Virus record (IMG/VR): IMGVR_UViG_2667527770_000005
Location: 14,376-78,375 of that record
Reading direction: 5' to 3' (one strand)
DNA length: 64,000 nt
From: a virus
Taxonomy: Duplodnaviria > Heunggongvirae > Uroviricota > Caudoviricetes
Below, piece by piece: positions 92-63,299 of the stretch. The notes under the pieces are model-generated. The model was not told the origin of the DNA and did not search any database. It saw nothing but the letters and a program-made list of their open reading frames with translations. The position numbers and the translations under genes are program-made. The first letter of the stretch is position 1. Every line of letters starts with the position of its first letter.

Positions 92-3000
92 ATGAACAAG
101 CTATCTATAGGGGTGTTTCGCTGTTCAAGTGTCAGCGAAATATTGAAATACATTAGGGCAATAACATCTCACCGAGCGCCGATTAGATACGGCGTGGAAA
201 AGGTGGAAGGCAAAAGCTATGACCGACTACGCCGGGAGGCGAATCAGAAGGCGATAGATTTGCTTAATTCGCTGGTGGACGGCGCGACACTGACAGATGA
301 ACAGCGCCAGATCCTGGCTGGGTACACCGGCGAAGGCGGCATTGGCGGGTCCGTCTCCGAATATTACACACCAAAGCCGATCGCTGAAGGTGTCTGGGAG
401 ATCATGAAGCTCTACGGCGCGGACGTAGGTAACACTCTGGAACCATCGGCGGGCACCGGCGTTTTTAATGAGACAAAACCGGTTGGCACGGTGATGACCG
501 CGACTGAGATCAGCAGTGTTTCCGGTCGTATAAACCAGCTGTTACATCCGGAAGACAGCGTACAGATTTCCCCGTTCGAACAACTGGCTGTAAGCACGCC
601 TAACGATTCATTCGACCATGTGGTGGGTAACGTTCCGTTCGGTGGTCGTGATAACACACGCAACATCGATAAACCTTACGCAGAAGAAACGGACATGGGG
701 TCTTACTTCATGCTCCGCATGTTGGACAAGATAAAGCCTGGCGGATTCATGTGCGTGATTGTGCCGCCGTCCATTGTTTCAGGTTCAAACATGAAGCGGT
801 TACGCCTGCGTCTATCCCGTAAAGCTGAATTTCTTGGCGCTCACCGCTTGCCTACCGGTACTTTTGACGCAAACGGGACCAGTACGGTCGTTGATGTGGT
901 GCTGATGCGTAAACATCCGGCAGAGATGGCTGAGAAAATCCCCCTGGTGGATGAAGGCACTCTTGAATCGGCAAATGTGCTTTGGCCAACGTTTATTTCT
1001 GGCAAGTGGTTTGAAAAGGACGGCCGCCGGTTTGTTCATGGTACTCAGGAGAAGGGATTCCAGGGGCGTATTGAGGTTCGTGCCGACGGGCAGATTGATA
1101 ACCTGGCTCTTAAAGCGAAGCTGATTCATCGTTTCGAAAGTCGTATCGACTGGTCTTTGCTCGATATGGCTGAACCGTCACCGACCGCAGATGTTGTTGA
1201 TGAAGGGGAAATGCGCCTGATTAATGGCGTATGGCAAAAATATGCTGGTGGTCGCTGGATTGAAGCTGATGCCGGGAAGGAGCTGAAGATTGATGTTGCC
1301 AGTTATGGCGCGGATAGCTGGGAGGCTCTTCAGCGTAACCTGACTACCACAGAAGGTCGTCTCGGCATGACATTTACCCAGATGGCAAATGTCCGCGATA
1401 AGTACACCACATCAATCAGCGACGATATGGTGCAACTGGTGGACTGGATTAACAGCCAGCCTGAAAAATACCGTGAACGCTTGTATCGCGGGGCGATGAT
1501 TGGCCGGATGTTAATTGAATATCAGGATATGAAGGCCGCCGGGCATAGTGCTGAACAAATCGAACAGCAGCGCCTTTCTCTGGTATCCCGTTTGCAGGCA
1601 GAGATTGACCGTTTTGGTAACCCCGGTCGCGGTCCGATAGCGAAATTGTCGGGGAGCGGTGCGCGCGCCTGGTTTGCTTTCCGTGGTGCGATTAAGCTGG
1701 ATGGCACTATTTCTGACGAGCTGACAGGAAAGCTGGTTACGCATGATTCCAGCGCCAGTTATGACTCCACCAGCTATCAGGACACCCTGCGTTATCTCTA
1801 TAGCGATCTTACCCGCGATCCAATCCAGCTCGATGATTTCCGCCTTGCGTTTACCGGCGAACTGCCAGCCAGTGATGAAGAGTTGCTTAATTTATTGGCC
1901 AGCACCCCTGGTATTGCGGTTTCACCGTATGGCGGGATTGTTCCGTTCGCCCGCGCCACCAGCGGCGACATTAACGAGATAGTGGCTCCAAAACAGGAAT
2001 TTCTTGCCACACACCCCGACGGTCCAGTAAAGAACAACGTCCTTAATCAGCTGGCAGCGATCGAAGAGAAGCGCATCAAGACGCCAGCAGAGAATATCCG
2101 CTTTAAGCTCAATAGCCGTTGGTTCGACCGCTCCGTCATTCTGGAATTTTTGCAGGAAAACGGCTATCCGGATCTGCGCTATGTGCAGTCAGTGCAGCTG
2201 GAAGGCGACGAAATGGTTTCTGACACCTATCACGGTGGTGATGGTCTGTTCGTCGGGCACCGATACGGTGTCGTCCAGCGCAAGGATAAAGAAACAGGCG
2301 AGATCCGCTACGAGTGGGACCGTAAATCGGGTGAAAACGCGACCGGGTTCCCGGCACAGCTGGAAAAGTATCTCAATGGTGCGCGTATCGGTGGCAAAGA
2401 TAGCGCGACGGCGAACGGCTACCGCGAGCAGATGGCACTGCTTGAGGACCAGTTCAATAAGTGGATCAAGACGCACGATCGCTACGATGAGCTGGTTGCC
2501 AAATACAACGATGTGTTCAATAGCAATATCCCGTATGAACACTCTGGCGATCCGCTTGGGTTGAAGGGATTAAGCGGTAAGCGCCAGCCATTTGATTACC
2601 AGAATAGCGAGGTGCGCCGACTGTCCGAAGATGGGCGCGGCATCCTGGGCTTCGGCACCGGGCTGGGTAAAACCACGACCGCGCTGGCGCTTGAGGCGTT
2701 CAACTATGAGAACGGTCGCTCTACCCGTACTGCGTATGTAGTGCCTAAATCAGTGCTGGAAAATTGGTATTACGAAGCAAAAGAATTCCTGAGTGAAGAG
2801 GCATTCAGTAACTACTTGTTCGTCGGTCTTGATGTGCTGATGGATGGCGATCAGATTCGCCAGGTGCCGGTGCTCAATGAGAACGGTAAACCTGTTCTTG
2901 GTACTGATGGCACTCCAGTTATGCGCGATGCTCTTAAGCTGGCAGATGAAGCCACTATCACGGCGCGGATGAACGCGATCCCGCACTCAAATTACCGTGC

Positions 3001-6000
3001 AGTCGTGTTTACCAAAGAACAATACGCCCGCATTCCGCTACGTGATGACACCGTAGATGAGCATGCACAGGATATGCTTTATGACTTCGTTGCAGCCGGG
3101 CGCGTAGCCAGCGCAATGGACTCCGACTCCCACCGCAAAGAGGCCGCGCGTCGCCGGGTATTGTCGGAGTATTCAGATACCGGCACCGAAAAAGCAGAGA
3201 AGTATCCGTACTTTGAGGATATGGGCTTCGATAGTGTGATCGCCGACGAAGGTCACAACTACCGCAATAGCTATAAAAATGGTCGCGAAGCGTCACAACT
3301 GGCCTATCTGCCCACCAGCGCGGTGGCGCAATCGGCGCGAGATATGGCAATTAAAAACGCGTACCTGATGAAAAAGAATGGCGGGCGCGGGCCGGTTCTC
3401 CTGACTGCAACGCCAGTCGTTAACACCCCGATCGATGCATACAACATGCTTTCTCATGTTCTGCCGAAGGAATACTGGCAGAACATGGGGATCTACGGTC
3501 CTGATGACTTCGTTAAATTCTTCGGCAAGACCAGGCTGGAAACGGTACAGAAAATTAGCGGTGAAGTTGAAGAAAAAATGGCGCTGGTGGGCTTTGAAAA
3601 CCTTGATGCGCTGCGCGGTATATTCCATCGCTGGGTAACGCTTAAAACGGCGGAAGACGTTAAGGATACCGTGGAGATCCCGGAGCTGGACGAACACCAG
3701 CAGGATGCACCACTTACTGAAGAACAACTGGCGGCGTATGAAGAATTGCGTCAGCAGGCGGAAGCGGCGGCCAAAGCCAACAATGGCGTAACGACCTCGG
3801 TCAATGAAGACGGCGTGATTGAGCACGAGAAAGCCCGTCCGATCTTCTCAATAATCAGGGATATGGACCGCGTATGTACTGACATGGACCTGTACTATCG
3901 CCGGATCACCTATCGTTTCCTGCCGGAGTACGCCGATGCGGTGCAGCAGCTGGCGGACAGTTTGCCTAAACAAGCCACCAGCGAAGACGACGACAGTGAT
4001 GATTCAATCACGCAGCAATCGCAATACTCCCTGATAGATAAGGGCGAGTTTATTCAGTTGCAGGTTCCGGAAGCGTTCGAGCAGGAAGTGAATAAGCGCC
4101 TGGCCAGGTTTGGCATTGACGAACAGACCGTAACTCACCCCGTTACGCCGAAATACGCGAAGCTGATCGCCACGCTGAAGGAGTTTTTCCCGGAAGGTAA
4201 GCAAATCATCTTCACCGATGAAAAAACGCAGCACCAGAAGCTCAAGCGCATTATCTGCAATGCTCTAAACCTTGAACCTTCAAAGGTGGGGATCCTGAAT
4301 GCTCAGACGGTTGCCGAGGCAGGTAAAACCGGTAAGAAACTGAAAGCGGTTAAACCGCCGAAAGAGCTACCGGATGAACCAACAGATGCACAGATAGCGA
4401 AATACAACGAGCAAATGGCTCTGTATGACGCCTATATCGCGCAGCAAAATGAAATGTCGTTGGGCGGTCTGGAAAAGATTGCAGCCGACTTCCAGGAGGG
4501 CCGGACTCCGATCATCATCTGCAACAAAAAGGCAGAGGTGGGTATCAACCTGCATCGAGGAACGACTGACATCCATCATCTGACGTTGCCATGGACACCA
4601 GCCAGCATCGCACAACGTAACGGTCGCGGTGCACGAGTTGGCTCCAACCGTGCAAGCGTTCGCGTTCACTACTACTGCGGCAAGGGGTCTTTCGATGAAT
4701 ACCGACTGAAGACGCTGAAGCGTAAAGCAGGCTGGATCTCCGATATCCTCCGTTCAGATAAGTCAGAAATGGAGAACGCCGACGCCAATGACATGATCGA
4801 AATGCAGATGTATACCGCGAAGGATGACGGCGAACGTCTGGCAATGATGCAGGTTCAAATGGATAAGGCGAAAGCTGCGAAACGCGCTCGCCAGAAAGAA
4901 CAGGCTACTATCGACCTTCAGAACTACATCAAGGCGCAGCACGCAGCTGGTGAGGATGTGGAGGTACTTACCGCTGAATTGGAGCGAAGCAAAGCGGAAC
5001 TTGAAAAGACCACCGCCGAGGTAGCTAAATTCAAACAGGCGGTAATGGCCAAAGCAGCTGATAACGCAGACTGGAAAGCCCGCTGGGGTAGCGTCCATCA
5101 CACAGACCGTATGTTGTTAGCACAGTATCGCGCGTCGTTGAAAAGCGCCATTCAGCGCAAGGCTAATATCTCTCAGGCCATCTCCCGCTATGAGAAATTA
5201 TTGAACCGTACTCAGAAGGCCGCGACGGATATCAAACGCCTGCGCCCGCTGGTGGAGGATGCAATAAATAAAGGCATTCTGGATGTTGATCCTGATCTGG
5301 TTAACCATGCGAATGAGTTCCTTGTTATCGGCGATCGCTCATGGCGTGTAGGCCAATACTATGATTGTGCCGGTGATATCGTTCGCATTAAGTCGCTGGA
5401 CTTCGACAGCCAGCGCGCAGACGTGGAGATCATCTTTACCTTCAAAGGCACCAAATCGGGTAACTGGGATGTGAAGACGCTGGATAAACAGGTTGATGTA
5501 ACTCCCGATGAAGATGCTGTTATGCAGAAAATCAGTGGTGGCGTCTCCATCGCCGGGATTAACGACATCATTTCCTGTGACGATTTCTACCGTTTCCAGC
5601 AGCGCGGCATGATCAAAATCACTGACTCATACGGCGTTCAGACTACAGAGTCAGGCTATAGCATCGATTTTGTTGGTACCTATACGGACCCACTGAAGCA
5701 TGCGGTTTACCCGGATCGCCGTGACGGCGCGCTGAAGTCGTCAATTGCAAAATGGGTGCTTGGTATGATGTCGGAAGGGAATAACCGCCAGATCCGTTCG
5801 GCAGAAACATTCCTGGTTGAACTGTTTGGCTCCAATTATGGCGATGTAATCGCGTCATACGGAGATACGCTATCCCCTGAAGCAATTCAGGAGAAAATAG
5901 CGGATGCGATCGCCAGAATGCCGGAAAAAACAAGCCAGGGGGCTACTCGTAACGGGGATTCTGAACTTGAAGTCACCAATGCCATTTTCGGTACCAATGA

Positions 6001-6859
6001 GTTCCGGGCGTCAGATTATGAGATCACCACAGCACAGTTTGGCACCATTGGCATTTACAGCAATAAAGCCGAGATCAAGCAGGCAATGGACGCAGCAAGC
6101 GCGCGCATCGCAGCAGAACGGGAAGCCAATCTGAATCATGCAGTCGCCGCGCTGACTCAATCGTGGGTAACAGCAATCAGGGAGGCCGCCACCACAGGGA
6201 AAATCACACCTGCAATAGCGGATGTCGTAAACGACGGCTCTAAATTTATGGATGCCTATCAAATGGATGCGGTGAAGTTGCCATCAGCCTATGGTCAACT
6301 CAGCTATCGCATGACCTACAACCTGGTATCAATGTTTTCCGACCTTGCCATCCTTGGGCTGGTGGATCTTAACGAGGTTACGCCGGAATTGCTCAGCATG
6401 CGCAAGAATCATGTGGAGATATTGCAGAGAATTAACACGGTTCTTGCCGGGCGCACCGATGAAGAGAAACAGGCCGACGCTGATCGGATAAACCTAGCCC
6501 TTGGCAACATCACGGAGGAAGAGATTGCCGCCAGAAACGAGAAACAAGAAGAGTTATCATCAATACAGGGTGATGCCACCAGCATAGCTCAGTCTCTTGG
6601 TCTGAATTATCGCGTATCCACCGCCGACCTGAAGATGATGTACGCACCAAAATTCGCCGCTGGCGAGGTATTTGGGCTTCAGGAAGCCTCAGGCATGAAA
6701 GGCGTTCTTTTCCGTGCGAAAGACGCAATCAAGGCGAAATTCGGCGCTCGCTGGCTGCCAGCGAAGGCGAAGAACAGCGATTTCCCGGGTAACTGGTGGA
6801 TTATCGAGACAAAACACAACGTGGCGGACGTTCTGGCCGTCATCCAACAATACGCATAA
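92..6859 (+). CDS. darB: DarB-like antirestriction protein (2255 aa; methyltransferase-like N-terminal region plus SF2 helicase)
   Basis: Single 2255-aa ORF, ATG at 92 preceded by AAGGA; Walker A-like GTGLGKTT and DEGH box (VIADEGH) visible; size and architecture match P1 DarB as recalled. Confidence 0.85.
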   Translation: MNKLSIGVFRCSSVSEILKYIRAITSHRAPIRYGVEKVEGKSYDRLRREANQKAIDLLNSLVDGATLTDEQRQILAGYTGEGGIGGSVSEYYTPKPIAEGVWEIMKLYGADVGNTLEPSAGTGVFNETKPVGTVMTATEISSVSGRINQLLHPEDSVQISPFEQLAVSTPNDSFDHVVGNVPFGGRDNTRNIDKPYAEETDMGSYFMLRMLDKIKPGGFMCVIVPPSIVSGSNMKRLRLRLSRKAEFLGAHRLPTGTFDANGTSTVVDVVLMRKHPAEMAEKIPLVDEGTLESANVLWPTFISGKWFEKDGRRFVHGTQEKGFQGRIEVRADGQIDNLALKAKLIHRFESRIDWSLLDMAEPSPTADVVDEGEMRLINGVWQKYAGGRWIEADAGKELKIDVASYGADSWEALQRNLTTTEGRLGMTFTQMANVRDKYTTSISDDMVQLVDWINSQPEKYRERLYRGAMIGRMLIEYQDMKAAGHSAEQIEQQRLSLVSRLQAEIDRFGNPGRGPIAKLSGSGARAWFAFRGAIKLDGTISDELTGKLVTHDSSASYDSTSYQDTLRYLYSDLTRDPIQLDDFRLAFTGELPASDEELLNLLASTPGIAVSPYGGIVPFARATSGDINEIVAPKQEFLATHPDGPVKNNVLNQLAAIEEKRIKTPAENIRFKLNSRWFDRSVILEFLQENGYPDLRYVQSVQLEGDEMVSDTYHGGDGLFVGHRYGVVQRKDKETGEIRYEWDRKSGENATGFPAQLEKYLNGARIGGKDSATANGYREQMALLEDQFNKWIKTHDRYDELVAKYNDVFNSNIPYEHSGDPLGLKGLSGKRQPFDYQNSEVRRLSEDGRGILGFGTGLGKTTTALALEAFNYENGRSTRTAYVVPKSVLENWYYEAKEFLSEEAFSNYLFVGLDVLMDGDQIRQVPVLNENGKPVLGTDGTPVMRDALKLADEATITARMNAIPHSNYRAVVFTKEQYARIPLRDDTVDEHAQDMLYDFVAAGRVASAMDSDSHRKEAARRRVLSEYSDTGTEKAEKYPYFEDMGFDSVIADEGHNYRNSYKNGREASQLAYLPTSAVAQSARDMAIKNAYLMKKNGGRGPVLLTATPVVNTPIDAYNMLSHVLPKEYWQNMGIYGPDDFVKFFGKTRLETVQKISGEVEEKMALVGFENLDALRGIFHRWVTLKTAEDVKDTVEIPELDEHQQDAPLTEEQLAAYEELRQQAEAAAKANNGVTTSVNEDGVIEHEKARPIFSIIRDMDRVCTDMDLYYRRITYRFLPEYADAVQQLADSLPKQATSEDDDSDDSITQQSQYSLIDKGEFIQLQVPEAFEQEVNKRLARFGIDEQTVTHPVTPKYAKLIATLKEFFPEGKQIIFTDEKTQHQKLKRIICNALNLEPSKVGILNAQTVAEAGKTGKKLKAVKPPKELPDEPTDAQIAKYNEQMALYDAYIAQQNEMSLGGLEKIAADFQEGRTPIIICNKKAEVGINLHRGTTDIHHLTLPWTPASIAQRNGRGARVGSNRASVRVHYYCGKGSFDEYRLKTLKRKAGWISDILRSDKSEMENADANDMIEMQMYTAKDDGERLAMMQVQMDKAKAAKRARQKEQATIDLQNYIKAQHAAGEDVEVLTAELERSKAELEKTTAEVAKFKQAVMAKAADNADWKARWGSVHHTDRMLLAQYRASLKSAIQRKANISQAISRYEKLLNRTQKAATDIKRLRPLVEDAINKGILDVDPDLVNHANEFLVIGDRSWRVGQYYDCAGDIVRIKSLDFDSQRADVEIIFTFKGTKSGNWDVKTLDKQVDVTPDEDAVMQKISGGVSIAGINDIISCDDFYRFQQRGMIKITDSYGVQTTESGYSIDFVGTYTDPLKHAVYPDRRDGALKSSIAKWVLGMMSEGNNRQIRSAETFLVELFGSNYGDVIASYGDTLSPEAIQEKIADAIARMPEKTSQGATRNGDSELEVTNAIFGTNEFRASDYEITTAQFGTIGIYSNKAEIKQAMDAASARIAAEREANLNHAVAALTQSWVTAIREAATTGKITPAIADVVNDGSKFMDAYQMDAVKLPSAYGQLSYRMTYNLVSMFSDLAILGLVDLNEVTPELLSMRKNHVEILQRINTVLAGRTDEEKQADADRINLALGNITEEEIAARNEKQEELSSIQGDATSIAQSLGLNYRVSTADLKMMYAPKFAAGEVFGLQEASGMKGVLFRAKDAIKAKFGARWLPAKAKNSDFPGNWWIIETKHNVADVLAVIQQYA

Positions 6860-6892
6860 CAGGAGCGCCCGGTTCGCCGGGCGTCGCATAAT

Positions 6893-7333
6893 ATGGCCAC
6901 ACTATCTGATACAATAAAACCGAATAAAACATATCTTGAGGCGGTACTCCGTACAGCGTTGTTAGGAAAGACAGAAGACGAATACGTTGATTTCTTCCTG
7001 TCAGGGCTACGCGGGCGATTACTGAAAAATCCCCGCCTGTACCGCAGCTATGGTCCATACTGGCCGGAAATTAAAAAATTATTACTGGAGCGCGGTTATG
7101 GTAATTTCGGTCGTCTCGTTGACCGTGACGTTCGCAAAATTTACCGTTATGACCGCCCGGCGCTAACACTCATAGCCGCGACGCTCTACAGCCAGGAGCG
7201 TTTTGATAATGGTCAGATATACTCAGCCTGGCATTTACTGCCAGTGCCTGAAGAAGTTGACGACCAGGACTATGAGTTTGAGTCTTACGATTTGGAAGTT
7301 GAAGCCTTGGCACAGGCTGGAGAGAAAACTTGA
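6893..7333 (+). CDS. hypothetical protein, 146 aa (position of P1 ulx)
   Basis: ATG ORF immediately downstream of darB on same strand; no motif recognised; synteny only. Confidence 0.45.
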   Translation: MATLSDTIKPNKTYLEAVLRTALLGKTEDEYVDFFLSGLRGRLLKNPRLYRSYGPYWPEIKKLLLERGYGNFGRLVDRDVRKIYRYDRPALTLIAATLYSQERFDNGQIYSAWHLLPVPEEVDDQDYEFESYDLEVEALAQAGEKT

Positions 7334-7578
7334 AAAAGCGATACTACACAGTAAAGCATGGGACGCTACGAGCATTACAAGAGTTTGCTGACAAGCATAA
7401 CGTTGAGGTGCGCAGGGAAGGGGGAAGTAAAGCTCTGCGCATGTACCGTCCGGACGGAAAATGGCGGACGGTCGTCGATTTCAAAACTAACAGCGTTCCC
7501 CAGGGCGTCCGCGACCGGGCATTCGAGGAATGGGAGCAGATCATCATAGATAACGCATTGCTCCTGAATGCTGATTAA
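7330..7578 (+). CDS. hypothetical protein, 82 aa (position of P1 lxc); TTG start
   Basis: ORF overlaps stop of upstream ORF; start codon is TTG; synteny only. Confidence 0.4.
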   Translation: MKKRYYTVKHGTLRALQEFADKHNVEVRREGGSKALRMYRPDGKWRTVVDFKTNSVPQGVRDRAFEEWEQIIIDNALLLNAD

Positions 7579-7582
7579 GAAC

Positions 7583-7611
7583 TCTCCGGCCTAGGGAGAT
7601 TAGGCCGGAGA
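7583..7611. terminator. perfect 9-bp stem-loop (TCTCCGGCC / GGCCGGAGA) between convergent genes; possible bidirectional terminator
   Basis: Inverted repeat read directly; flanks AT-rich but no clean U-run. Confidence 0.4.
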
Positions 7612-7619
7612 TAAATATA

Positions 7620-8924
7620 CTATATAAACTTAGATATAATATCGTGAATCTGTTGTAGCGGGATTTCTTCCATCTTACTCTTAATAAGAGAGCGGTTAGA
7701 TGCTGTCAGTGAAGGCCATTTTGTTTTCCAGGCTAGATATGCTCGCCATGAGTAGCCTGTTTCGTAAGGTTTATTCATATAAGTCATTGAGTGTTCAACC
7801 GCATGTATGTATTTTTTCTCAAAGTTGGTTCCTTTTACTTCAAATAAACTACCGAAATAAATAAGCCATTTTGCCAGGTGTTCATACTGCTCCCATGCGC
7901 CAGACTCTTTAGTAAGATCTATTTTTTTATCTATTATATCACAAAAAACATTTAATACCTTTTCATCATTCCAGCTATATCCAGATGATGAAATGGAGGA
8001 AATGATATGATAAAAAGAATCCTCTAACTTCAAGAACTCTATTTTATACTCTCTTCCGTTTTTTATTACCGATTTGATTGAGTGCCTCAATTTGTCTTTT
8101 ATTTTTTTTGCTTCTGGAATTTTCTTGTTAAGTTTTCTAAAGAAATCAGACACCTCTGTTTTATCTATAACCCTAATCCCAAAGCAGGAAAAATAGTAAT
8201 CTTTAATAGGTTGCAATAGTTTTCCTCGGGAAATAAGGAAAATATTGGAGGACATTACGTTGTCCCGTGAAAATACCTTATATTCATTTATAATCGCCTT
8301 GAGGTTCGCGTCACTTAGAGAATAGCCAAGAATAACAATAGTGTTTTCATGTAGAACTGTGCTTAGTTTATTTGAAAAGTAAGAATTACCATTTATAAAT
8401 CTGAAATAATCCTCGCTAGTAACAACCATATCTGATGGGGAGTCTATAGAGCCGTGAACATGGTAGACTTTAACCTCACAATTATATTTTGGAATTGGCA
8501 GGCCGGGGGTGATTGTACACGTTCGATTCTCTCCAGCCAGTTTTTCTGCTAACTTGTCATAATTTGTCGTAATTACTTTAAATGTGTTTTCTTTGAAAAA
8601 GTCTTGAATATATTCAATTGATGGATCAAGTTCGATTGAGGCTATGATTTTCTCAATCTCCTGGTAAATATTTTTCCCCGAAAGTATAAATTTTAGTGCA
8701 ATAACCTGAGCAGCCTCTTCAAGGCTAAGGTCTTTTGCTTTTCCATCAGGAAATAATTCCTCTTTGAGTGAGTCACCATCCTTCAATAAACCGCACAGTT
8801 GCTCCAATAAAGATTGCCAACTTGGGGCTTTATCATCAGAAACAGCCTTTGAAAATCCAGTGCCTGTAAGAAAGCACAGCCTATGTGTAGCTGCTGCATA
8901 GGCAATTTCTATATACTCGCTCAT
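7620..8924 (-). CDS. SIR2-family (sirtuin-like, NAD-binding) protein with uncharacterised C-terminal half, 434 aa; candidate antiphage defence effector
   Basis: ATG at 8924 with GGAG 7 nt upstream; N-terminal motifs LTGTGFSKAV (GAGxS-like), ITTNYD (TQNxD-like), YHVHGS (catalytic His) typical of SIR2; gene strongly AT-rich versus flanks; occupies the res/mod slot between mat and darB operon. Confidence 0.8.
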   Translation of the reverse strand: MSEYIEIAYAAATHRLCFLTGTGFSKAVSDDKAPSWQSLLEQLCGLLKDGDSLKEELFPDGKAKDLSLEEAAQVIALKFILSGKNIYQEIEKIIASIELDPSIEYIQDFFKENTFKVITTNYDKLAEKLAGENRTCTITPGLPIPKYNCEVKVYHVHGSIDSPSDMVVTSEDYFRFINGNSYFSNKLSTVLHENTIVILGYSLSDANLKAIINEYKVFSRDNVMSSNIFLISRGKLLQPIKDYYFSCFGIRVIDKTEVSDFFRKLNKKIPEAKKIKDKLRHSIKSVIKNGREYKIEFLKLEDSFYHIISSISSSGYSWNDEKVLNVFCDIIDKKIDLTKESGAWEQYEHLAKWLIYFGSLFEVKGTNFEKKYIHAVEHSMTYMNKPYETGYSWRAYLAWKTKWPSLTASNRSLIKSKMEEIPLQQIHDIISKFI

Positions 8925-8980
8925 TACTTACTCCATTTACTTATAGTTCTACGGAGAAGTATACCCTAATGCATTGACGT

Positions 8981-9622
8981 TTATAGATAATTTCCTTTTC
9001 CTGTTAATACTCCCTTAGGCACCTGTTTTTGTGCCAGCGTTTGGGTTCCGCGAATTATGTTAATCAGAGGGCTTAGTAACGATGGTTCCTGGCGTGCCTC
9101 AACTTCTCCAGCCATTGCCCTGATGTAGTCTGCGCTGGCAACGTTGTTGTATTCCGTCGCAAAGCAACATAGTAACGTCAGAACATGCTCTGTCGTTATT
9201 TCGCTCCAGTTGATGTTGAAAAATTCATCGCCTTTTTTATCGTGTTCGGAATCGAAGATGCTTTGGTGGAGGATGTATTTGCCGGATTCCTTGCGCGGTA
9301 ACTTGATCGCTTTCTGGCGTTCCAGCTCCTTGTAAATCTGCATTGCTTCAATCAGTACCGGCCTGCCGTTCATGAAGGGATCGCGCAACCTTACACGCTG
9401 GCCAACTCGACCAGTAATAAAGCTGTTTTCCTCTTCCACCAGCACGATAAAACCCTTTTCCTCTTTTTCTCGCAATTCGCGCAGCAGCTGGAGTTCCATG
9501 TCGCGGCGGCGTTCAGGGTAGCTGGTCCGCTCAGCCATTATCAGCTCGTTGTTGATCCATGCAGCAGTCATTGACGCCGGTTTGCCGACGCTCATCGAAA
9601 CAACGCATATTTTCTTATCCAT
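8981..9622 (-). CDS. mat: Mat-like particle maturation protein
   Basis: Synteny (between ref and res/mod slot); track ORF begins with GTG at 9649, first ATG at 9622 has GGGG upstream so ATG start preferred. Confidence 0.6.
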   Translation of the reverse strand: MDKKICVVSMSVGKPASMTAAWINNELIMAERTSYPERRRDMELQLLRELREKEEKGFIVLVEEENSFITGRVGQRVRLRDPFMNGRPVLIEAMQIYKELERQKAIKLPRKESGKYILHQSIFDSEHDKKGDEFFNINWSEITTEHVLTLLCCFATEYNNVASADYIRAMAGEVEARQEPSLLSPLINIIRGTQTLAQKQVPKGVLTGKGNYL

Positions 9623-9810
9623 AGCGCCCCTACAAAAAAGAAAAGCCACCAGCGGCGGCTTAGCAATACAACTGAAGGTAGCGCCCGGTACTCAGACTGT
9701 GCCGTCCATGGAATATTTGAAAAGGGATCCATCCGTACCGGGCGTGTGATGATTCTGACTCAAGTCACTTGTCAGTTGTCAATCATTTAAGATTAAAAAT
9801 AATATATTTA

Positions 9811-10371
9811 TTAGTGCATGATGTTTGCCATTTCATAGGCGTCAGCCAGCAACTCCATCTCTGACTTGTTCAGCAGGGTGAATTCTTTCTTGCCTCCAAC
9901 CACACCATCGGCATGAACAGGGACCAGCCAGGGGTATTTTGCTCTTACTTCAGCCGGAGCTGCATGCTGGTGGTGCCATCTACAAAGTGGCAATTGCTTT
10001 TTATGACAACCCGGCGCGGTACGACCGGCGATATGGTGCAGAGACATCTCATTAGATATTACTCCATGCATATAGCAGGCAATGCAGGGGAGAGTGCCAA
10101 GAGCATTGGCGATGCGCCGTTCCTCCGCCGTTGGTGTTCTCCCCTTCAAGCCACGAGATTTTATTTTTACCGCGCTTTTCCGCGTTTTGCTGGCTGGTGG
10201 GCGCTCTTTCTGTTTAGCGATACGGCGGTCGAGAGTATCCCGCATTTTCTGATATTGAGATTCTCGCCAGACCGGATCAGCCAACTTCTCCCGTTGCCGA
10301 GCGATCGCTCGTTCTCTGGCTGCCTTCTGCCACTTGCGGCACTGTTCAATTTTTTGTTCGATTGTTTTCAT
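9811..10371 (-). CDS. ref: Ref recombination enhancement HNH endonuclease, 186 aa
   Basis: HNH-like His/Cys cluster (HHIAGR..CHKKQLPLCRWHH); size and position next to cre/cra as in P1. Confidence 0.85.
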   Translation of the reverse strand: MKTIEQKIEQCRKWQKAARERAIARQREKLADPVWRESQYQKMRDTLDRRIAKQKERPPASKTRKSAVKIKSRGLKGRTPTAEERRIANALGTLPCIACYMHGVISNEMSLHHIAGRTAPGCHKKQLPLCRWHHQHAAPAEVRAKYPWLVPVHADGVVGGKKEFTLLNKSEMELLADAYEMANIMH

Positions 10372-10982: not shown

Positions 10983-12014
10983 CTAATCGCCATCTTCCAG
11001 CAGGCGCACCATTGCCCCTGTTTCACTATCCAGGTTACGGATATAGTTCATGACAATATTTACATTGGTCCAGCCACCAGCTTGCATGATCTCCGGTATT
11101 GAAACTCCAGCGCGGGCCATATCTCGCGCGGCTCCGACACGGGCACTGTGTCCAGACCAGGCCAGGTACCTCTGGCCAGAGTCATCCTTAGCCCCGTAAA
11201 TCAATCGGTGAGTTGCTTCAAAAATCCCTTCCAGGGCGCGAGTTGATAGCTGGCTGGTGGGTGATGGCGAGGCAACACCATTTTTTCTGACCCGGCAAAA
11301 CAAGTAGTTATTCGGATCATCAGCCACACCAGAGACAGAAATCCATCGTTCGACCAGTTTAGTTACCCCCAGGCTAAGTGCCTTCTCTACACCCGCGGTA
11401 CTAACCAGCGTTTTCGTTCTGCCAATATGGATTAGCATTCTCCCACCGTCTGTACGTGAGATATCTTTAACCCTGATCCTGGCAATTTCGGCTATACGTA
11501 ACAGGGTGTTATAAGCGATCCCCAGAAATGCCAGATTACGTATATCCTGGCAGCGATCGCTATTTTCCATGAGTGAACGAACCTGGTCGAAATCAGTGCG
11601 TTCGAACGCCAATGCCTGTTTTGCACGTTCACCGGCATCAACGTTTTCTTTTCGAATCCGCCGCATGACCAGTGAAACAGCATTGCTGTCACTTGGTCGT
11701 GGCAGCCCGGACCGACGATGAAGCATGTTTAGCTGGCCCAAATGTTGCTGGATAGTTTTTACTGCCAGACCGCGCGCCTGAAGATATAGAAGATAATCGC
11801 GAACATCTTCAGGTTCTGCGGGAAACCACTTCCGGTTATTCAACTTGCACCATGCCGCCCACGACCGGCAAACGGACAGAAGCATTTTCCAGGTATGCTC
11901 AGAAAACGCCTGGCGATCCCTGAACATGTCCATCAGGTTCTTGCGAACCTCATCACTCGTTGCATCGACCGGTAATGCAGGCAAATTTTGGTGTACGGTC
12001 AGTAAATTGGACAT
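10983..12014 (-). CDS. cre: Cre tyrosine recombinase, 343 aa
   Basis: Protein begins MSNLLTVHQNLPALPVD and ends MVRLLEDGD, recognisably Cre; loxP lies 420 bp upstream. Confidence 0.97.
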   Translation of the reverse strand: MSNLLTVHQNLPALPVDATSDEVRKNLMDMFRDRQAFSEHTWKMLLSVCRSWAAWCKLNNRKWFPAEPEDVRDYLLYLQARGLAVKTIQQHLGQLNMLHRRSGLPRPSDSNAVSLVMRRIRKENVDAGERAKQALAFERTDFDQVRSLMENSDRCQDIRNLAFLGIAYNTLLRIAEIARIRVKDISRTDGGRMLIHIGRTKTLVSTAGVEKALSLGVTKLVERWISVSGVADDPNNYLFCRVRKNGVASPSPTSQLSTRALEGIFEATHRLIYGAKDDSGQRYLAWSGHSARVGAARDMARAGVSIPEIMQAGGWTNVNIVMNYIRNLDSETGAMVRLLEDGD

Positions 12015-14044: not shown

Positions 14045-15529
14045 TTATTCATTAAGCCATGCCAGAGCTTCATCAACCTGCGCTTCGTCTTCGACGCTAA
14101 GCACTTCATCCTGGGGAACATAGTTCGCCAACATAGCGAAACAATATGTATCCCAATGGTCCGGTGAGTGCAGGTTGAGTTTTTTCTTCATATCTTCCTT
14201 TGACATCACCTTCCATTGACCTGCGGAATTTATCCCTACCGGTATCTTTGATGCTTCCTCTATAGTCGCAGCCCCCTTATCAAGCCGCATACGCCCTGAT
14301 TTTACAGCTTCTGCCGCCTGAATATTCGCGAAAGCGCGCATATCGAAATAAAGGCTTTTATCTTCACGGCTGTGCATCTTTTTACCCCAGCGGATACGCT
14401 GGACGGTAATGCCATAGCGTTCGTACATTAGATCAGCCGTCGATTTCCCCAAGCCATCGCCATCAATAGCTATGGTTATGTTCGGGAACCGTTCTGGGTT
14501 ACATTCTGCGAAAATCTTGGCGGCTAACTGCGTTTCTGTAACGTCTGTGTATTCCAGCATACGATAGTTGATTACACGGCGTTTATTTCGCTGGCCGGAC
14601 ACCATCATGATATTAATAACGGACTTATCTCGCCCTGTGCCACCAGCAACGTCAACACATGCAACCCAGCCCCATCCTTTGGCAATCTTGACCTTTCGCC
14701 GCGTCGCCCGCTCAACCTCATCACGACCAAGAAGAAAGCCATCTTGAGATTTGGGAAATTCACCACGTACTTTGATCATGTACATGGGGTTATCACGACC
14801 GCCATACTCCGCAAGTTTTGCTCGTATAAATTTTGCATCTACAAGCGGAGATTCTTCACTATTCAGTATTATCGCAGTAAACAATCCATCAGGATTTCCC
14901 GGGCGAATAGCTAGTCTGTGGTGTGAATCGTAGAAATAGCCTGAAGGTCGCGTAGGCTGGGAAAGAAGCAGAATACGGTTATCCTTACCGGTCAGCGCAC
15001 CTGTTATCACACTGAATGCTTTATCACTCACACCCGACGCTTCGTCGATGATATACAAGAGATGATCGGCGTGTTCACCAGCCAACGCCTCCTCATTTCC
15101 GGGGCGACAGGACTTTATCAATATTGTCCAAACACCCTTGCCAGTCACCTCAAAAAAAGACGTTTCTGTAAGAATGAAATACTTCGACAACCACGGGAAT
15201 CTGCTAACAGCAGTAGCCCAATTGCTCTTTATGTATTTGAAAATACCATCAAGGACTTGCTGTCTTTTGTTAGCGACCAGAATGACGCGAGCGCCGGGGA
15301 AAAACATGATGAAGAGTATTGCAATGATACTCGTCATATCCGATTTACCAGTACCATGGCCGGAGGTCACACTTGTCCAACTGCCGTCCTGCTGCGTGGA
15401 CTCAATGATCTCATCCTGCTGCCAGGTTGGTGTCTTCCCAAACAACACATCAGCGGCCGCAATCCAGTCATAACGATATAGCGCCACCAGCTCGCGCCAA
15501 CGTGGGTCCGTTACGCAACTTCTGGCCAT
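14045..15529 (-). CDS. pacB: PacB terminase large subunit, 494 aa
   Basis: Walker A GHGTGKS; follows pacA; size as P1 PacB. Confidence 0.9.
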
Positions 15530-20368: not shown

Positions 20369-21927
20369 ATGAAAATGACAAGTATTCAACAACGTGCAGA
20401 GCTTCATCGTCAAATCTGGCAAATTGCTAACGATGTCAGAGGTTCGGTCGATGGATGGGATTTTAAGCAATACGTTCTGGGCGCGCTTTTCTACCGTTTT
20501 ATCAGCGAAAATTTTTCCAGCTATATTGAAGCCGGTGATGACAGCATCTGTTATGCGAAACTGGATGACAGCGTAATTACTGATGACATTAAAGACGATG
20601 CCATCAAAACCAAAGGCTACTTCATCTACCCAAGTCAGCTTTTCTGCAACGTAGCTGCGAAAGCAAATACCAATGACAGACTGAATGCAGATTTAAACAG
20701 CATCTTCGTTGCTATCGAAAGTTCTGCTTACGGTTATCCTTCAGAAGCTGACATCAAAGGTTTGTTTGCTGATTTCGATACCACCAGTAACCGCCTGGGT
20801 AACACCGTTAAAGATAAAAATGCCCGCCTGGCTGCGGTTCTGAAAGGGGTTGAAGGGTTAAAACTTGGTGACTTCAACGAACATCAGATTGACCTGTTCG
20901 GTGATGCCTATGAGTTCCTGATTTCTAACTATGCGGCAAATGCCGGTAAGTCAGGCGGTGAGTTCTTTACACCGCAGCACGTCTCCAAGCTGATTGCACA
21001 ACTGGCTATGCACGGGCAGACCAACGTTAACAAAATCTACGACCCGGCAGCGGGTTCCGGCTCACTGTTGTTGCAGGCTAAAAAGCAGTTTGATAACCAT
21101 ATCATTGAAGAAGGCTTTTTCGGACAGGAAATCAACCATACGACCTATAACCTGGCACGTATGAACATGTTTTTGCACAACATCAACTACGACAAGTTTG
21201 ATATCAAGCTGGGCAATACGCTGACTGAGCCGCACTTCAGAGATGAAAAACCGTTTGATGCCATCGTATCTAACCCACCGTATTCGGTGAAATGGATTGG
21301 CAGCGATGACCCGACGCTGATTAACGATGAGCGTTTTGCCCCGGCTGGCGTTCTGGCCCCCAAATCCAAAGCTGACTTTGCGTTTGTATTACATGCGCTG
21401 AACTATCTTTCGGCCAAAGGTCGCGCTGCGATTGTCTGCTTCCCGGGCATTTTTTACCGTGGCGGCGCAGAGCAGAAAATCCGTCAGTATCTGGTCGATA
21501 ATAACTATGTCGAAACCGTGATTTCACTGGCTCCGAACCTGTTCTTTGGCACCACCATTGCCGTCAATATTCTGGTGTTGTCTAAACATAAAACCGATAC
21601 CAAAGTTCAGTTTATTGACGCCAGCGAATTATTCAAAAAAGAGACTAACAACAATATCCTGACCGATGCCCATATCGAACAGATTATGCAGGTATTTGCC
21701 AGCAAGGAAGATGTTGCTCATCTGGCGAAATCAGTCGCGTTTGAGACTGTTGTCGCGAATGACTATAACCTGTCGGTGAGCAGTTATGTGGAAGCGAAAG
21801 ATAACCGCGAAATTATCGATATTGCTGAGTTGAATGCAGAGCTGAAAACCACGGTCAGCAAAATCGACCAGTTGCGTAAAGATATTGATGCGATTGTAGC
21901 TGAAATTGAAGGCTGCGAGGTACAGAA

Positions 21928-21931
<4 letters not shown>
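20369..21931 (+). CDS. hsdM: Type I restriction-modification methyltransferase subunit HsdM, 520 aa
   Basis: NPPYS catalytic motif; N-terminus [17 protein letters not shown] typical of type IC HsdM; ATGA overlap with hsdS. Confidence 0.95.
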
Positions 21932-23163
<1,232 letters not shown>

Positions 23164-23284
23164 TTGACCATTGCTACCGACCGGGCCACCTTAACACCCG
23201 GTCAGTATATAGACTATTTTTTACACGCTGGAAGTCACCATTAACGCCCTTCCGGCCCTTGCCAGACGGCACAAAGGATGCGCT

Positions 23285-39946: not shown

Positions 39947-40022
39947 TGGTGGCCCCTACCGGACTTGAACCGGTGACCGTGCGATTATGAGTCGCCAGCT
40001 CTAACCACTGAGCTAAAGGGCC
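39947..40022 (-). tRNA. tRNA with CAT anticodon (Met, or Ile if lysidine-modified), encoded CCA
   Basis: Hand-folded cloverleaf: acceptor GGCCCTT/AGGGGCC, D arm GCTC..GAGC, loop CTCATAA, T arm ACCGG-TTCAAGT-CCGGT. Confidence 0.85.
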
Positions 40023-41826: not shown

Positions 41827-41903
41827 TGGTGCCGGTTAACGGACTCGAACCGCTGACATCCTGCTTACAAGGCAGGCACTCTACCAACTGAGCTAAACCG
41901 GCA
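41827..41903 (-). tRNA. tRNA-Thr (TGT)
   Basis: Hand-folded: anticodon stem CCTGC/GCAGG, loop CTTGTAA, T arm GCGGTTCGAGTCCGT, encoded CCA. Confidence 0.88.
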
Positions 41904-41906
41904 ATT

Positions 41907-41993
41907 TGGTGGGGAGTGATGGAGTCGAACCACCCGAGTCGCAATGACAGTAGATTTACAGTCTCCCCCGCTACCTCTACGGACTAACTCCCC
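41907..41993 (-). tRNA. class II tRNA, probable tRNA-Tyr (GTA)
   Basis: 87 nt, long variable arm, loop CTGTAAA, T loop TTCGACT, encoded CCA. Confidence 0.7.
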
Positions 41994-41998
41994 TAAAT

Positions 41999-42073
41999 TG
42001 GCGATGGTGGGTGGATTCGAACCACCGACCAGTTGGTTAACAGCCAACTGCTCTACCGCTGAGCTACACCATC
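41999..42073 (-). tRNA. tRNA-Asn (GTT)
   Basis: Acceptor GATGGTG/CACCATC, loop CTGTTAA, T arm GGTGG-TTCGAAT-CCACC, encoded CCA. Confidence 0.88.
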
Positions 42074-60286: not shown

Positions 60287-60751
60287 TTATGTCCCAAGTG
60301 CTCTTTTTCTGCTTTGTTTGAGTGTTCTGATTTTACTGTCATAGGTTACAACATAGGCTGTTTTGAGAAGCCAATAGTCTCTACGTGCGGATAGCACAAC
60401 AACGTAGTTTTCACACTCGTTCCAGATTACCCACTCTTCAGTTGGTCCTCGTCTTTCAGACCAACATGATATATCGCAATGGTCATAATTCCTTATCATA
60501 TGCGCGATCCAGCGGATCCGCTTACACCGTTCAAGATCAGGTATTCGTTCTTCTTCTATTTTTCCCTCTGATACTAAATGCCAAAATCCGAACTCTTTCC
60601 CATCATATTCCGGTGAATAACGTAATCGAACAGGGAGACCCTTAAACGTTATATTAGAGATTAAAATATCTTCTCTAACAACATCATATACATCGTCTAT
60701 ATACTCTTGCCAACTTCCATTGAAGTACAATAAATCTGGCATTTGAAGCAT
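60287..60751 (-). CDS. hypothetical protein, 154 aa, translationally coupled to DUF3800 gene
   Basis: ATG overlaps upstream TGA by 1 nt (TGATG); AT-rich. Confidence 0.5.
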   Translation of the reverse strand: MLQMPDLLYFNGSWQEYIDDVYDVVREDILISNITFKGLPVRLRYSPEYDGKEFGFWHLVSEGKIEEERIPDLERCKRIRWIAHMIRNYDHCDISCWSERRGPTEEWVIWNECENYVVVLSARRDYWLLKTAYVVTYDSKIRTLKQSRKRALGT

Positions 60752-61455
60752 CAGCGAGCCTCCCACACGAAAATATTAAATTTACTTTCTGTTGGAAGAG
60801 TGCTTTTTAGTAACTCCCTGTTTGTATGTGATTTTATCCTGTTTATGACTTGGATTTTTCCCGCGTTGCTATTCATTCCTCGATGAACGTAGCCTAACGC
60901 ACCAATGAAAAGATCCGTTAGCTGCAATTGTTGCACTTCATGAGATCGTATATGTTGAATTCTGTTTATCGACTCATGATTGTAATCATAGCGATCATTG
61001 TGAAGAACTCCTCTTAATTTCTCAATTTTTTCAATACCTAAAGTATCTTTTATATCTAGGTAGATATTGTATGTGTTGTTACTTTCTATTATGTTTTTTA
61101 AGACATAAAAAAACATCTTATAATAGAAAGTATTGTGATCTTGATGGAATCGAGCATGGTCCAGTTGCTCTTTATCAGGAACAACAACACCTCTAAAGCG
61201 CAATGCTGGGTTGCTGAAGAAGTAATCTACGACCTCTAAGTAAAATTCAACTTTGGACGCAGATACTTTAGTCCACTTGATTTCGAAATCAGGTTTTAAA
61301 TTGTGTTTTAATTTTAATCCCTTGATGTCTCTAGCAATTTTTTTTGTGATAGTGCCAGGACACCAAAGCGCACCCAATACCATGACTTTATTATGATCAT
61401 TTAGTAGGTGACAGGATTCATCGCAGAATACATTAAATGTTCTTCGGTTCAACAT
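60751..61455 (-). CDS. DUF3800-like protein, 234 aa
   Basis: N-terminal FCDES motif; ATG with GGAG SD; AT-rich. Confidence 0.55.
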   Translation of the reverse strand: MLNRRTFNVFCDESCHLLNDHNKVMVLGALWCPGTITKKIARDIKGLKLKHNLKPDFEIKWTKVSASKVEFYLEVVDYFFSNPALRFRGVVVPDKEQLDHARFHQDHNTFYYKMFFYVLKNIIESNNTYNIYLDIKDTLGIEKIEKLRGVLHNDRYDYNHESINRIQHIRSHEVQQLQLTDLFIGALGYVHRGMNSNAGKIQVINRIKSHTNRELLKSTLPTESKFNIFVWEAR

Positions 61456-61608
61456 GTTAACTCCACTTATTGTTAGGTAGAATTGTCCGTTAGTTGTTTA
61501 TTAATTGCAATAATGGGACGTTCTGATTTGCTAACTACGTCATCTTACCAGGACGCCTATGAGTTTTCCTCATGGCAAACTAGAGGTGTTGAAAGTATGC
61601 ATGGTTAT

Positions 61609-61627
61609 AATTAGAGCAATCTATCAC
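61609..61627. promoter_or_regulatory. C1 operator-like site at repL 3' end, upstream of DUF3800 cassette
   Basis: ATAATTAGAGCAATCTATC. Confidence 0.5.
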
Positions 61628-62469
61628 CCTCTGAATCCTACCGGTATACCCCATTGTTCGTTATCTTTATTTTTGGCTAATACCGCATTAAGTGCTTCGT
61701 TTACCGTCATGCAATGCGGTAGATTATCGAAGTTTGATATCCAGCCAATATCAGGAGAACGCTTGTTCTTCAGGTAAGCATATTTCCGCGCTGCCGCCTC
61801 TACTTTCTGCTTGAACTCATGTTTTTGAGCGCGTTTTTTGGATAACCGCAGATTGTCAGCCTTTGCTTTTGCCTCAGCGATCCATGAAGTCAGTTTTTTG
61901 AGGCTGGTCGTTCCGGTACCGCCGGAAACTGATCTTTTTGTTTTTTTAATTTGTGACTTCTTATTCTTTATTGCCACGTCATCCTGACAGGGGGAGGGGG
62001 TATCATTTTGACATGGGGGTGTGGATAAAAAATTAAATAAAGCCAATGTCTTAGCGAGAACAGCTTTAACCTTGGTTGCCGCTGAAGAGATCTTTAATTT
62101 GCTTTCAATCAGCGCATTTTTGGCTTGTTGTGCGAAGGCCAAAAAGGATGGTGTAAACCGGTACAGGTTAGCGCGACGTTCACGGTGATCGCCGATAACA
62201 ATCTCTACAGACAGAATTCCTTTGTTTACAGCTTCACGGAATGCACGAACGACGGTTGATTGGCTATAACCAGTTTCTGCCGCGATCAGGCGGTGAGGCT
62301 TGTGAATGAAGTATTCACTGGTTGTTGCCGCGAGATTTGCACATTGCGACAGGATATGCCCGGCGCTACGGGATAGACCGGAGTGTGTTACAAAGCAGGC
62401 CAATTCATAGCCAGAAAAAGTAAAATCGCTCATCGTTATACAGCTCAGGAAAGTGACTTTAGCCAGCAT
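61624..62469 (-). CDS. repL: RepL lytic replication initiator, 281 aa
   Basis: Downstream of kilA; size as P1 RepL. Confidence 0.85.
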   Translation of the reverse strand: MLAKVTFLSCITMSDFTFSGYELACFVTHSGLSRSAGHILSQCANLAATTSEYFIHKPHRLIAAETGYSQSTVVRAFREAVNKGILSVEIVIGDHRERRANLYRFTPSFLAFAQQAKNALIESKLKISSAATKVKAVLAKTLALFNFLSTPPCQNDTPSPCQDDVAIKNKKSQIKKTKRSVSGGTGTTSLKKLTSWIAEAKAKADNLRLSKKRAQKHEFKQKVEAAARKYAYLKNKRSPDIGWISNFDNLPHCMTVNEALNAVLAKNKDNEQWGIPVGFRG

Positions 62470-62498: not shown

Positions 62499-63299
62499 TT
62501 AGCGCGTTGCCGCGACAGGTACCAGCACACCAGCATCAAGCAATCGCTTCATCAGCCACTGCTGACCTTTGCCGGTTATACGAGTCGTGAAAGAAATCCT
62601 GCTTCCATTGCTTGTATCGATCACGGTTTCTTTAAGGGTGAAATACCCACGGGATATGTATTCTTGTTTGGGGACGTTCCTGCGTTCACCGGTTGCGATC
62701 AGAATTCCGTTATCACGCAACCAGGTGAAGAGATAGTTTTGGCCCAGGCCGAGCACTTTGGCATAGTTGCCGATTAGAACCCCGCTGGCGGTAGCAACGC
62801 GTTCGGCGAATTCGACTTTAGGTGCATCCATCAGCATTTTTTGCTCCAGCCGTTGCTTTTGCTCTGCCAGGTCGGCAGCCAAACGGAGAGCTTCAGGGAG
62901 ACTCTGCGGAATAGCAGGTTGTAATCTTCCGGCTCGATAGTCGATAAATGTCTGGTTTACCTTCAGCCGAAACGCGGGAGAAATCCAGCCTGCGTACTCC
63001 ACAGCGAGCAATTCATGGGCAAAAGTGCCGCCGCCACGGCCTTCGAACGAAACTATGCAATTCTGCATAGTTTCTTTTTCAAGCTCTTCGATGAGCTGTT
63101 TGGCTGACAGCGTTCTTAGCCATTGAGCTGGCGCTTTATGGGCACCGAGTCCGCTCGCTCTGTGTAGAGCATTAAGGTTGTAACGGCCAGCGCGGTCGGT
63201 CGTAATTTCAACACCACAAATAACAGGCAGAGTGGTTGAAGGATCGACATTTTGATGAAGGTTTGATATATTCATATCCGCATAGAATGTTTGTTGCAT
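62499..63299 (-). CDS. kilA: KilA (KilA-N domain), 266 aa
   Basis: Size and position with Op53-like operator upstream. Confidence 0.85.
   Translation of the reverse strand: MQQTFYADMNISNLHQNVDPSTTLPVICGVEITTDRAGRYNLNALHRASGLGAHKAPAQWLRTLSAKQLIEELEKETMQNCIVSFEGRGGGTFAHELLAVEYAGWISPAFRLKVNQTFIDYRAGRLQPAIPQSLPEALRLAADLAEQKQRLEQKMLMDAPKVEFAERVATASGVLIGNYAKVLGLGQNYLFTWLRDNGILIATGERRNVPKQEYISRGYFTLKETVIDTSNGSRISFTTRITGKGQQWLMKRLLDAGVLVPVAATR

Follow-up and report, generated by a model that had tools for sequence, protein, structure and literature searches.

Why does a P1-like phage-plasmid carry a lone gene of the SIR2 family between lxc and mat, and what would such a gene do there? The locus lies in a 64,000-nt stretch of viral DNA (positions 14,376 to 78,375 of IMG/VR record IMGVR_UViG_2667527770_000005; hereafter the window, in whose own numbering positions are given), which comes from a P1-like phage-plasmid with the gene order darB, ulx, lxc, SIR2 gene, mat, ref, cre. 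The gene itself (7620..8924, minus strand, ATG start) was placed from the list of open reading frames (ORFs) with its translation and from a Pfam SIR2_2 match. Its 434-aa product (WP_000006034.1) is named ‘SIR2 family NAD-dependent protein deacylase’ in RefSeq. We propose that the gene is probably accessory defence cargo, namely a single-protein abortive-infection system of the phage-plasmid, in which a SIR2 effector would be governed by a helical domain that is private to this protein family.

The gene sits in a segment that is clearly delimited from the backbone around it, which is 95-98% identical to that of P1, RCS47, SJ46 and others. Its left border is lxc (modulator protein; 7330..7578, plus strand; assigned from synteny and annotation in RCS47, SJ46 and RefSeq plasmids) and its right border is mat (maturation control protein; 8981..9649, minus strand; assigned from synteny and annotation). 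In phage RCS47 this slot is empty, with 39 bp separating the lxc and mat coding sequences. Since homology with RCS47 stops at the lxc stop codon and restarts at the end of mat, we set the bounds of the cargo at 7579..8980, from one stop codon to the other. A first-pass annotation of this DNA had described a single 434-aa ORF on the mat strand, far more AT-rich than both flanks, and both points hold: the ORF is intact, and the G+C fraction (GC) of the gene is 0.353 against about 0.50 around it (0.31-0.38 in 400-nt windows over 7600-8999, 0.49-0.53 over darB/ulx/lxc and 0.48-0.51 over mat). As was also stated there, no TIR, HerA, Argonaute, STAND or SLOG partner adjoins the gene.

The N-terminal part of the protein, residues 1-255 (8160..8924, minus strand), is a SIR2_2 (Rossmann) domain by Pfam, alignment and Foldseek. 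The Pfam match (PF13289) covers residues 117-245 at E = 1.6e-23, scoring 83.8 bits against a cut-off of 24.5, and the three sirtuin hallmarks previously noticed in this half are all located in the translation, as FLTGTGFSKAV (residues 18-28), ITTNYD (118-123) and YHVHGS (154-159). The GTGFSK NAD-binding loop (G21-K26), N121 and D123 of TTNYD, and H157 of YHVHGS are invariant in 27 homologues at 53-60% identity. When the family profile was compared with all PDB sequences, the matches were anti-phage NADases only (DSR2 at 7e-11 over residues 14-257, ThsA at 2e-10 and KomC at 6e-8). N121 and H157 align with N133 and H171 of DSR2, and H171A is the mutant form in several deposited DSR2 PDB entries. 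An AlphaFold2 model of the 434-aa protein, with a predicted local distance difference test score (pLDDT) of 83.2, has DSR2, ThsA and KomBC as its top Foldseek matches. The canonical sirtuin profile PF02146 gives no match to the protein at E up to 1, and no CxxC motif, and hence no Cys4 zinc module, occurs in its 434 residues; the protein is therefore not a canonical (CobB-type) sirtuin. The catalytic residues of the domain are thus intact and its nearest relatives are defence NADases, a kinship from which we infer that it would hydrolyse NAD+.

The C-terminal part, residues 256-434 (about 180 aa; 7623..8159, minus strand), is modelled with confidence as an all-helical, solenoid-like domain, and is a candidate sensor or regulatory domain. 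The first-pass annotation had recognised nothing in the last 200 aa or so and had proposed a profile hidden Markov model search and structure prediction for both halves. These recover the SIR2 fold described above, and the C-terminal half has no match in Pfam or among PDB sequences and no specific fold match. An exhaustive phmmer search with this domain alone against 1.84e9 representative proteins returned only 75 clusters; the full-length matches are about 420-480 aa long and hold the domain at about 255-440, and the other matches are shorter and look like fragments. All ten of the most distant full-length matches carry an N-terminal SIR2_2 domain, and no fusion of the C-domain to another effector was present in that search. 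SIR2 and C-domain thus evolve as a single unit. The C-domain is new in the sense that it lacks any specific relative and is confined to this SIR2 family. It is also the faster-evolving part, with a mean pairwise identity of 57% family-wide vs 70% for the N-domain. By analogy, it may act as the sensor.

How widespread is this architecture, and does it come with a partner? A word-indexed search found 665 homologues of the SIR2 protein, the best 120 of which are 405-465 aa long and 54-61% identical over 90-100% of the query, with hosts including Vibrio, Halomonas, Pseudoalteromonas, Klebsiella, Pantoea, Pseudomonas, Delftia and others; family members are consistently about 430-480 aa. A genome scan with one genome per species yielded 67 full-length family loci, mostly in gamma-, beta- and alphaproteobacteria, with isolated loci in Actinobacteria, Bacteroidota, Desulfobacter and a Caenarcaniphilales metagenome-assembled genome, and the gene is intact at all 67. 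What had been called an ‘orphan’ gene belongs instead to a widespread family, to which RefSeq gives a generic label. Relatives also occur on other predicted prophages, and a chromosomal paralogue from Escherichia coli (P0083) lies at a prophage end beside an integrase; megablast found no match to it in complete RefSeq E. coli genomes.

The neighbourhoods were compared by taking all ORFs within 10 kb at the 67 loci and matching them all against all. No neighbour family is conserved over the 67 loci, the commonest being present in only 13 and at varying positions; we therefore find no partner gene and reject the partner-gene hypothesis. The earlier description of a compact single-gene SIR2 protein with a novel second domain is borne out, the gene standing alone here and in the 67 genomes. 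The nearest neighbours are a mixture of housekeeping genes, mobile-element genes (integrase, resolvase, transposase) and defence genes, the last comprising, in raw counts, three TIR, two dGTPase and two Mrr genes as well as a reverse transcriptase and NERD+UvrD, and further PD-T7-5, a type I S subunit and PADLOC candidates. TIR proteins make up 3 of the 127 nearest neighbours scanned. At two loci a TIR-domain gene lies just downstream on the same strand, in Vreelandella nanhaiensis (L015; 11406-12308, plus strand, 301 aa, 95 bp away) and in Photobacterium indicum (L020; 11979-12842, plus strand, 288 aa); such pairs may work in a Thoeris-like way, or defence genes may simply lie side by side there. 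In Paracidovorax avenae (L007; 10335-14278), a 1135-aa protein without Pfam match and a 189-aa AAA_23/SMC_N-like protein are encoded on the opposite strand about 1 kb downstream of the family member, and could represent an SMC-type defence system.

If the family as a whole travels without a partner, the site that holds it in P1-like elements has a character of its own. Ranking IMG/VR loci by the similarity of their mat to that of the window, we surveyed the top 80, 74 of which have lxc within reach; this choice biases the survey towards SIR2 carriers. The slot is empty (36-46 bp) in 10 of the 74 and holds the window-type SIR2 gene in another 10 (1409 bp) and a SIR2 paralogue in 3 (about 1420 bp). 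The largest class (11/74; about 1275 bp) encodes the RelA/SpoT protein known from phage SJ46, and this protein matches PADLOC PDC-S33 along its full length. Eight loci hold about 5090 bp with ORFs of 970 and 653 aa, the same size as the annotated type III res and mod of plasmid pE2865-1, eight hold 1197 bp resembling PDC-S31, five hold about 1055 bp resembling PDC-S34/PD-T7-3, and three hold about 3570 bp with a JukA homologue (3e-66). Four classes have no PADLOC match: 586-588 bp with a 135-aa ORF (L209; 3/74), 879 bp with a 201-aa ORF (L181; 5/74), about 896-922 bp with a 202-aa ORF (L169/L204; 5/74), and 1705 bp with ORFs of 346 and 169 aa (L176; 3/74). All cargo classes are AT-rich, at GC 0.35-0.43 (0.35-0.40 in these four), and by position the four are further candidate defence genes.

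CapRelSJ46, which has been validated experimentally, comes from phage SJ46 (PMC9712102). A RelA/SpoT protein is annotated in the stretch of the SJ46 record examined here, and the slot ORF of this phage is probably CapRelSJ46. In phage vB_EcoM-673R5 (L009; 1342-2441), RelA/SpoT cargo is annotated as two ORFs, a 180-aa hypothetical protein and a 182-aa RelA/SpoT protein, whose SJ46 counterpart is a single 373-aa protein; CapRel may be split or frameshifted here, or the two genes may form a toxSAS system of another arrangement. Because CapRel, type III restriction-modification, JukA-like genes and PADLOC candidates occupy it in relatives, the lxc-mat slot is a defence hotspot in P1-like elements. 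The idea of a variable slot dedicated to defence cargo, put forward before any intervals had been compared, thus stands, with unknown genes and empty sites among its states.

Within this slot the SIR2 gene is common and diverse. PLSDB has 699 records that match the flanks of the slot. An identical gene is found in about 65 PLSDB plasmids from E. coli, Escherichia fergusonii, Klebsiella and Salmonella, and the annotation of P1-like plasmids gives it just as ‘SIR2 family protein/deacylase’ (WP_000006034.1). Among 5426 complete E. coli genomes, P1-type mat is present in 695 and the window variant in 70, and in 69 of these 70 records the match spans 80% or more of the gene. The slot paralogue (P0005) is 59% identical to the window protein (64% in the N-domain, 51% in the C-domain). 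A paralogue group, made up of this protein and a relative 80-90% identical to it (the latter in 50 genomes), is found in 64 further E. coli genomes; from the 70 and the 64 together, about 19% of mat-positive E. coli genomes hold a family member. The 1305-nt ORF is unbroken in each of the diverged alleles, which stand at 98, 97, 96 and 92.5% nucleotide identity. The AT-richness of the gene had been taken to fit recent acquisition, an inference that falls because every cargo class of the slot is AT-rich and alleles at 92-100% identity are intact.

The paralogue occupies the identical slot, as placed in three IMG/VR loci (L110, where the gene is at 6001-7305, L124 and L125). Compared with the window, the paralogue locus is 96-100% identical in nucleotides over mat and a 56-nt leader, drops in identity at the start codon and returns to it at lxc. 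The SIR2 variants therefore show cassette-like diversification in the slot. In plasmid pE2865-1 (NZ_AP018809.1; L097, 1495-8934), the order is mat-SIR2-res-mod-lxc, with SIR2 as a 97.7% allele and darB reduced to a short pseudogene fragment, so that SIR2 and type III restriction-modification can share the slot. The proposal that the SIR2 gene replaces res and mod is thus right for the element in the window and wrong as a general rule.

The junctions of the cargo suggest how it might be expressed. The upstream spacer or leader of 56 nt (8925..8980, minus strand) contains a GGAG ribosome-binding site at 8932-8935 and is 98% identical between the two SIR2 variants by sliding identity to L110. Just beyond it, a promoter-like site (8980..9007, minus strand), by consensus match only, consists of TTAACA (9007-9002), a 16-nt spacer and TATAAA (8985-8980). 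This -10 element overlaps the mat stop codon and is present only with cargo, the empty-slot RCS47 having TCTGAA there. A strict promoter scan returned no minus-strand promoter upstream of the SIR2 gene; it missed this site because it demands T at position 6. At the other end, the convergent interval between lxc and the SIR2 gene holds an 11-bp G+C-rich hairpin (7583..7611; terminator scan, RNA fold -20.8 kcal/mol, z = -5.0), which is missing in RCS47 and differs in the variant-2 cassette, and which is a probable bidirectional terminator belonging to the cargo. Transcription in lysogens would probably start from the gene's own junction promoter and end at this hairpin, in common with lxc.

Several known defence systems resemble the protein in part. 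The closest likeness is to DSR2 and DSR1, in which a single chain likewise joins an N-terminal SIR2_2 domain to an all-helical solenoid, DSR2 being the best PDB match in sequence and fold; however, the NCBIfam equivalogs are about 1200 aa long with a cut-off of 1400 bits, whereas the present protein has 434 aa and scores 30.6 bits against Dsr2 and 21.2 bits against Dsr1, over the SIR2 region only. The best PADLOC match (5e-24), also for ten distant members, is PDC-S25, a single-gene SIR2 system that is itself only a candidate, yet the match is confined to the SIR2 half of the 517-aa profile (positions 127-283 for the window protein, 22-246 for distant relatives) and the C-terminal halves are unrelated. 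Thoeris ThsA, among the top matches in sequence and fold, has a SIR2_2 NADase domain of similar size in a protein of similar length, but ends in a SLOG domain that the SIR2 protein lacks, and no thsB/TIR neighbour is found in the window, where lxc and mat adjoin, or beside most relatives.

SIR2 also serves as an NAD+-consuming effector in Lamassu LmuA-SIR2, SIR2-HerA, Kongming KomC, SIR2-APAZ/prokaryotic Argonaute (pAgo) and Avs5. Unlike the protein studied here, these need LmuB SMC, HerA, KomA/B, pAgo or a STAND NTPase, which are absent from the slot and not conserved beside relatives. The PADLOC LmuA profile is matched only at positions 21-221 of 433, and the slot has no SMC-like LmuB gene; KomC matches the SIR2 part; for SIR2-HerA (Nezha), no HerA-type ATPase or helicase gene is present in the slot and no conserved neighbour at the 67 loci. 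The PADLOC PD-T models give no match to the SIR2 protein. The closest parallel in position is CapRelSJ46, a fused toxin-antitoxin that senses capsid and is also single-gene, AT-rich cargo (roughly 370 aa) in the same lxc-mat slot and on the mat strand of phage SJ46, with an N-terminal effector and a C-terminal regulatory or sensor domain; it is of an unrelated family, and pyrophosphorylates tRNA instead of hydrolysing NAD+.

Membership in Thoeris, SIR2-HerA, pAgo-SIR2 or DSR, already doubted in the first-pass annotation, is thus not borne out, and the same is true of Avs. The suggestion that the system is undescribed also survives, since neither the curated models nor the searchable papers describe this family. 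WP_000006034 is not mentioned in searchable papers, a body of literature that leaves most subscription journals outside its scope, and PDC-S25 was found there once, as a bare annotation. The phage-plasmid surveys in that literature mention no SIR2 cargo, and preprints on TIR systems and on PANGU proved to have no bearing on the family. A DefenseFinder v1.3.0 screen of P1- and D6-group phage-plasmid contigs (846 P1, 224 D6) lists type III restriction-modification, dGTPase, PrrC and CapRel and no SIR2 system (bioRxiv 10.1101/2025.09.12.675607). Vassallo et al. report 21 systems with a Sir2 homologue among them, PD-T7-2 being the HerA-containing system. The family is best read as single-protein SIR2 abortive-infection defence with a new compact C-terminal module, and as not categorically new.

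In the mechanism that we envision, the N-terminal SIR2_2 domain would be the effector that hydrolyses NAD+, and the C-terminal helical solenoid would keep the enzyme off until an infection cue switches it on through the C-domain. This cue would most likely be a protein of the superinfecting phage; we propose such a trigger by analogy, since in DSR2 the tail tube protein is bound by the alpha-solenoid domain at the C-terminus (PMC11850899). The resulting collapse of NAD+ would stop the invading phage, and this arrest would protect the lysogen population together with the resident plasmid-prophage.

A pattern among the alleles fits this proposal. Nonsynonymous changes between alleles concentrate in the C-terminal half in three of four comparisons (Fisher p = 0.009, 0.021, 0.041), whereas the most divergent allele has no such excess (p = 0.64); because of this one comparison, and because the comparisons share history, the excess is suggestive only. 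On the other side, two IMG/VR copies of the SIR2 gene (L107, 3509-4809; L112, 6001-7303) are split in two by tblastn, which suggests frameshifts, through either inactivation or sequencing error. These copies are what could make the gene seem a decaying or inactive remnant, for which we see next to no chance: all four diverged alleles and all 67 genome loci are intact, nearly all E. coli records cover most of the gene, and the catalytic residues are invariant in the 27 homologues, so that conservation effectively refutes it.

The remaining alternatives accept an active protein and give it another role. It is unlikely, in our judgement, that the SIR2 domain modifies a specific phage or host target by ADP-ribosylation or deacylation, whether for defence or for the benefit of P1 itself through counter-defence or lysogeny control, in which case the RefSeq label would be nearer the truth. 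In other families the SIR2 fold does carry out reactions of this kind, and the slot adjoins the anti-restriction genes darB and ulx; yet the neighbours of this protein in sequence and fold are all SIR2_2-type defence NADases, it has neither PF02146 nor CxxC, and the cargo identified at this site in relatives is defence, not counter-defence. We consider it quite unlikely that the effector depends on a signal or partner supplied in trans, such as a TIR-made nucleotide, as in Thoeris, or a host or P1 protein. The TIR genes directly downstream in Vreelandella and Photobacterium, with the third among the nearest neighbours, would suit such a signal, as would the ThsA models among the best PADLOC matches for the SIR2 part, but neither TIR nor any other family is conserved at the 67 loci or present in the P1 slot, the all-helical C-domain is not SLOG, Macro or another known nucleotide-sensing fold, and the SIR2 gene enters unrelated backgrounds alone. 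A selfish stabilisation or toxin module, acting by post-segregational killing or plasmid exclusion, or hitch-hiking cargo without a defence role, seems to us very unlikely: although a site between convergent genes tolerates many kinds of insertion, unannotated ones included, and NADase toxins can serve addiction, no antitoxin-like partner is present, many genomes have the gene on the chromosome and on its own, its slot-mates include CapRel and restriction-modification, and P1 carries an addiction system of its own.

With single-protein abortive infection as the preferred reading, a bolder extension can be drawn, which we hold tentatively and with less than even confidence. The C-domain might be a direct receptor for a phage protein, which would make the 434-aa protein the smallest autonomous SIR2 pattern-recognition NADase (DSR2 has about 1000 aa). 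The 59%-identical slot variants, with C-domains at 51%, might then see different triggers, and the lxc-mat hotspot might resemble those of P2/P4, with at least four of its cargo classes (588, 879, about 896 and 1705 bp) possibly being new systems.

The rest of the window holds the following features. Around the slot lie darB (92-6859, plus strand, with N6_Mtase and SNF2/helicase domains), ulx (6893-7333, plus strand), ref (9811-10371, minus strand, with a RecA_dep_nuc domain) and cre (10983-12014, minus strand). The same element carries a complete type I restriction-modification operon (20369-26401, plus strand), composed of hsdM (20369-21931; N6_Mtase, 5.8e-121), hsdS (21928-23163; Methylase_S, in an AT-rich region with GC 0.385 at 22-23 kb) and hsdR (23285-26401; PADLOC REase_I, 1610 bits), all on the plus strand. 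An AT-rich island (60287-62469, minus strand; GC 0.38-0.39) holds an overlapping gene pair on that strand that matches the two-gene PADLOC candidate PDC-M04, with PDC-M04A at 60751-61455 (2e-95, Pfam DUF3800) and PDC-M04B at 60287-60766 (1e-51). Beside the pair is a 281-aa ORF (61624-62469, minus strand) without Pfam or PADLOC match, and a KilA-N/ANT antirepressor gene (62499-63299) adjoins the island, which is a putative second defence locus on the plasmid. Four tRNA genes lie on the minus strand, Met(CAT) at 39947-40022 and, clustered at 41827-42073, Thr(TGT), Tyr(GTA) and Asn(GTT); P1 is described as having three, and the Tyr gene of the window may be an extra one.

If our proposal is correct, about a fifth of the P1-like phage-plasmids of E. 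coli would carry a compact, one-gene immunity based on NAD+ depletion that annotation pipelines leave unflagged. P1-like phage-plasmids also spread resistance and virulence genes, and the finding would bear on the prediction of host range for phage therapy in Enterobacteriaceae. The chemistry of NAD+ depletion would not surprise specialists; it is the prevalence, the small size, the series of variants and the hotspot that make the system a good experimental target. Its size and its natural series of alleles and paralogues in a near-isogenic context would make it a convenient model for how a sensor domain gates a SIR2 NADase and how trigger specificity evolves, and the lxc-mat slot offers a ready discovery site for more defence genes.

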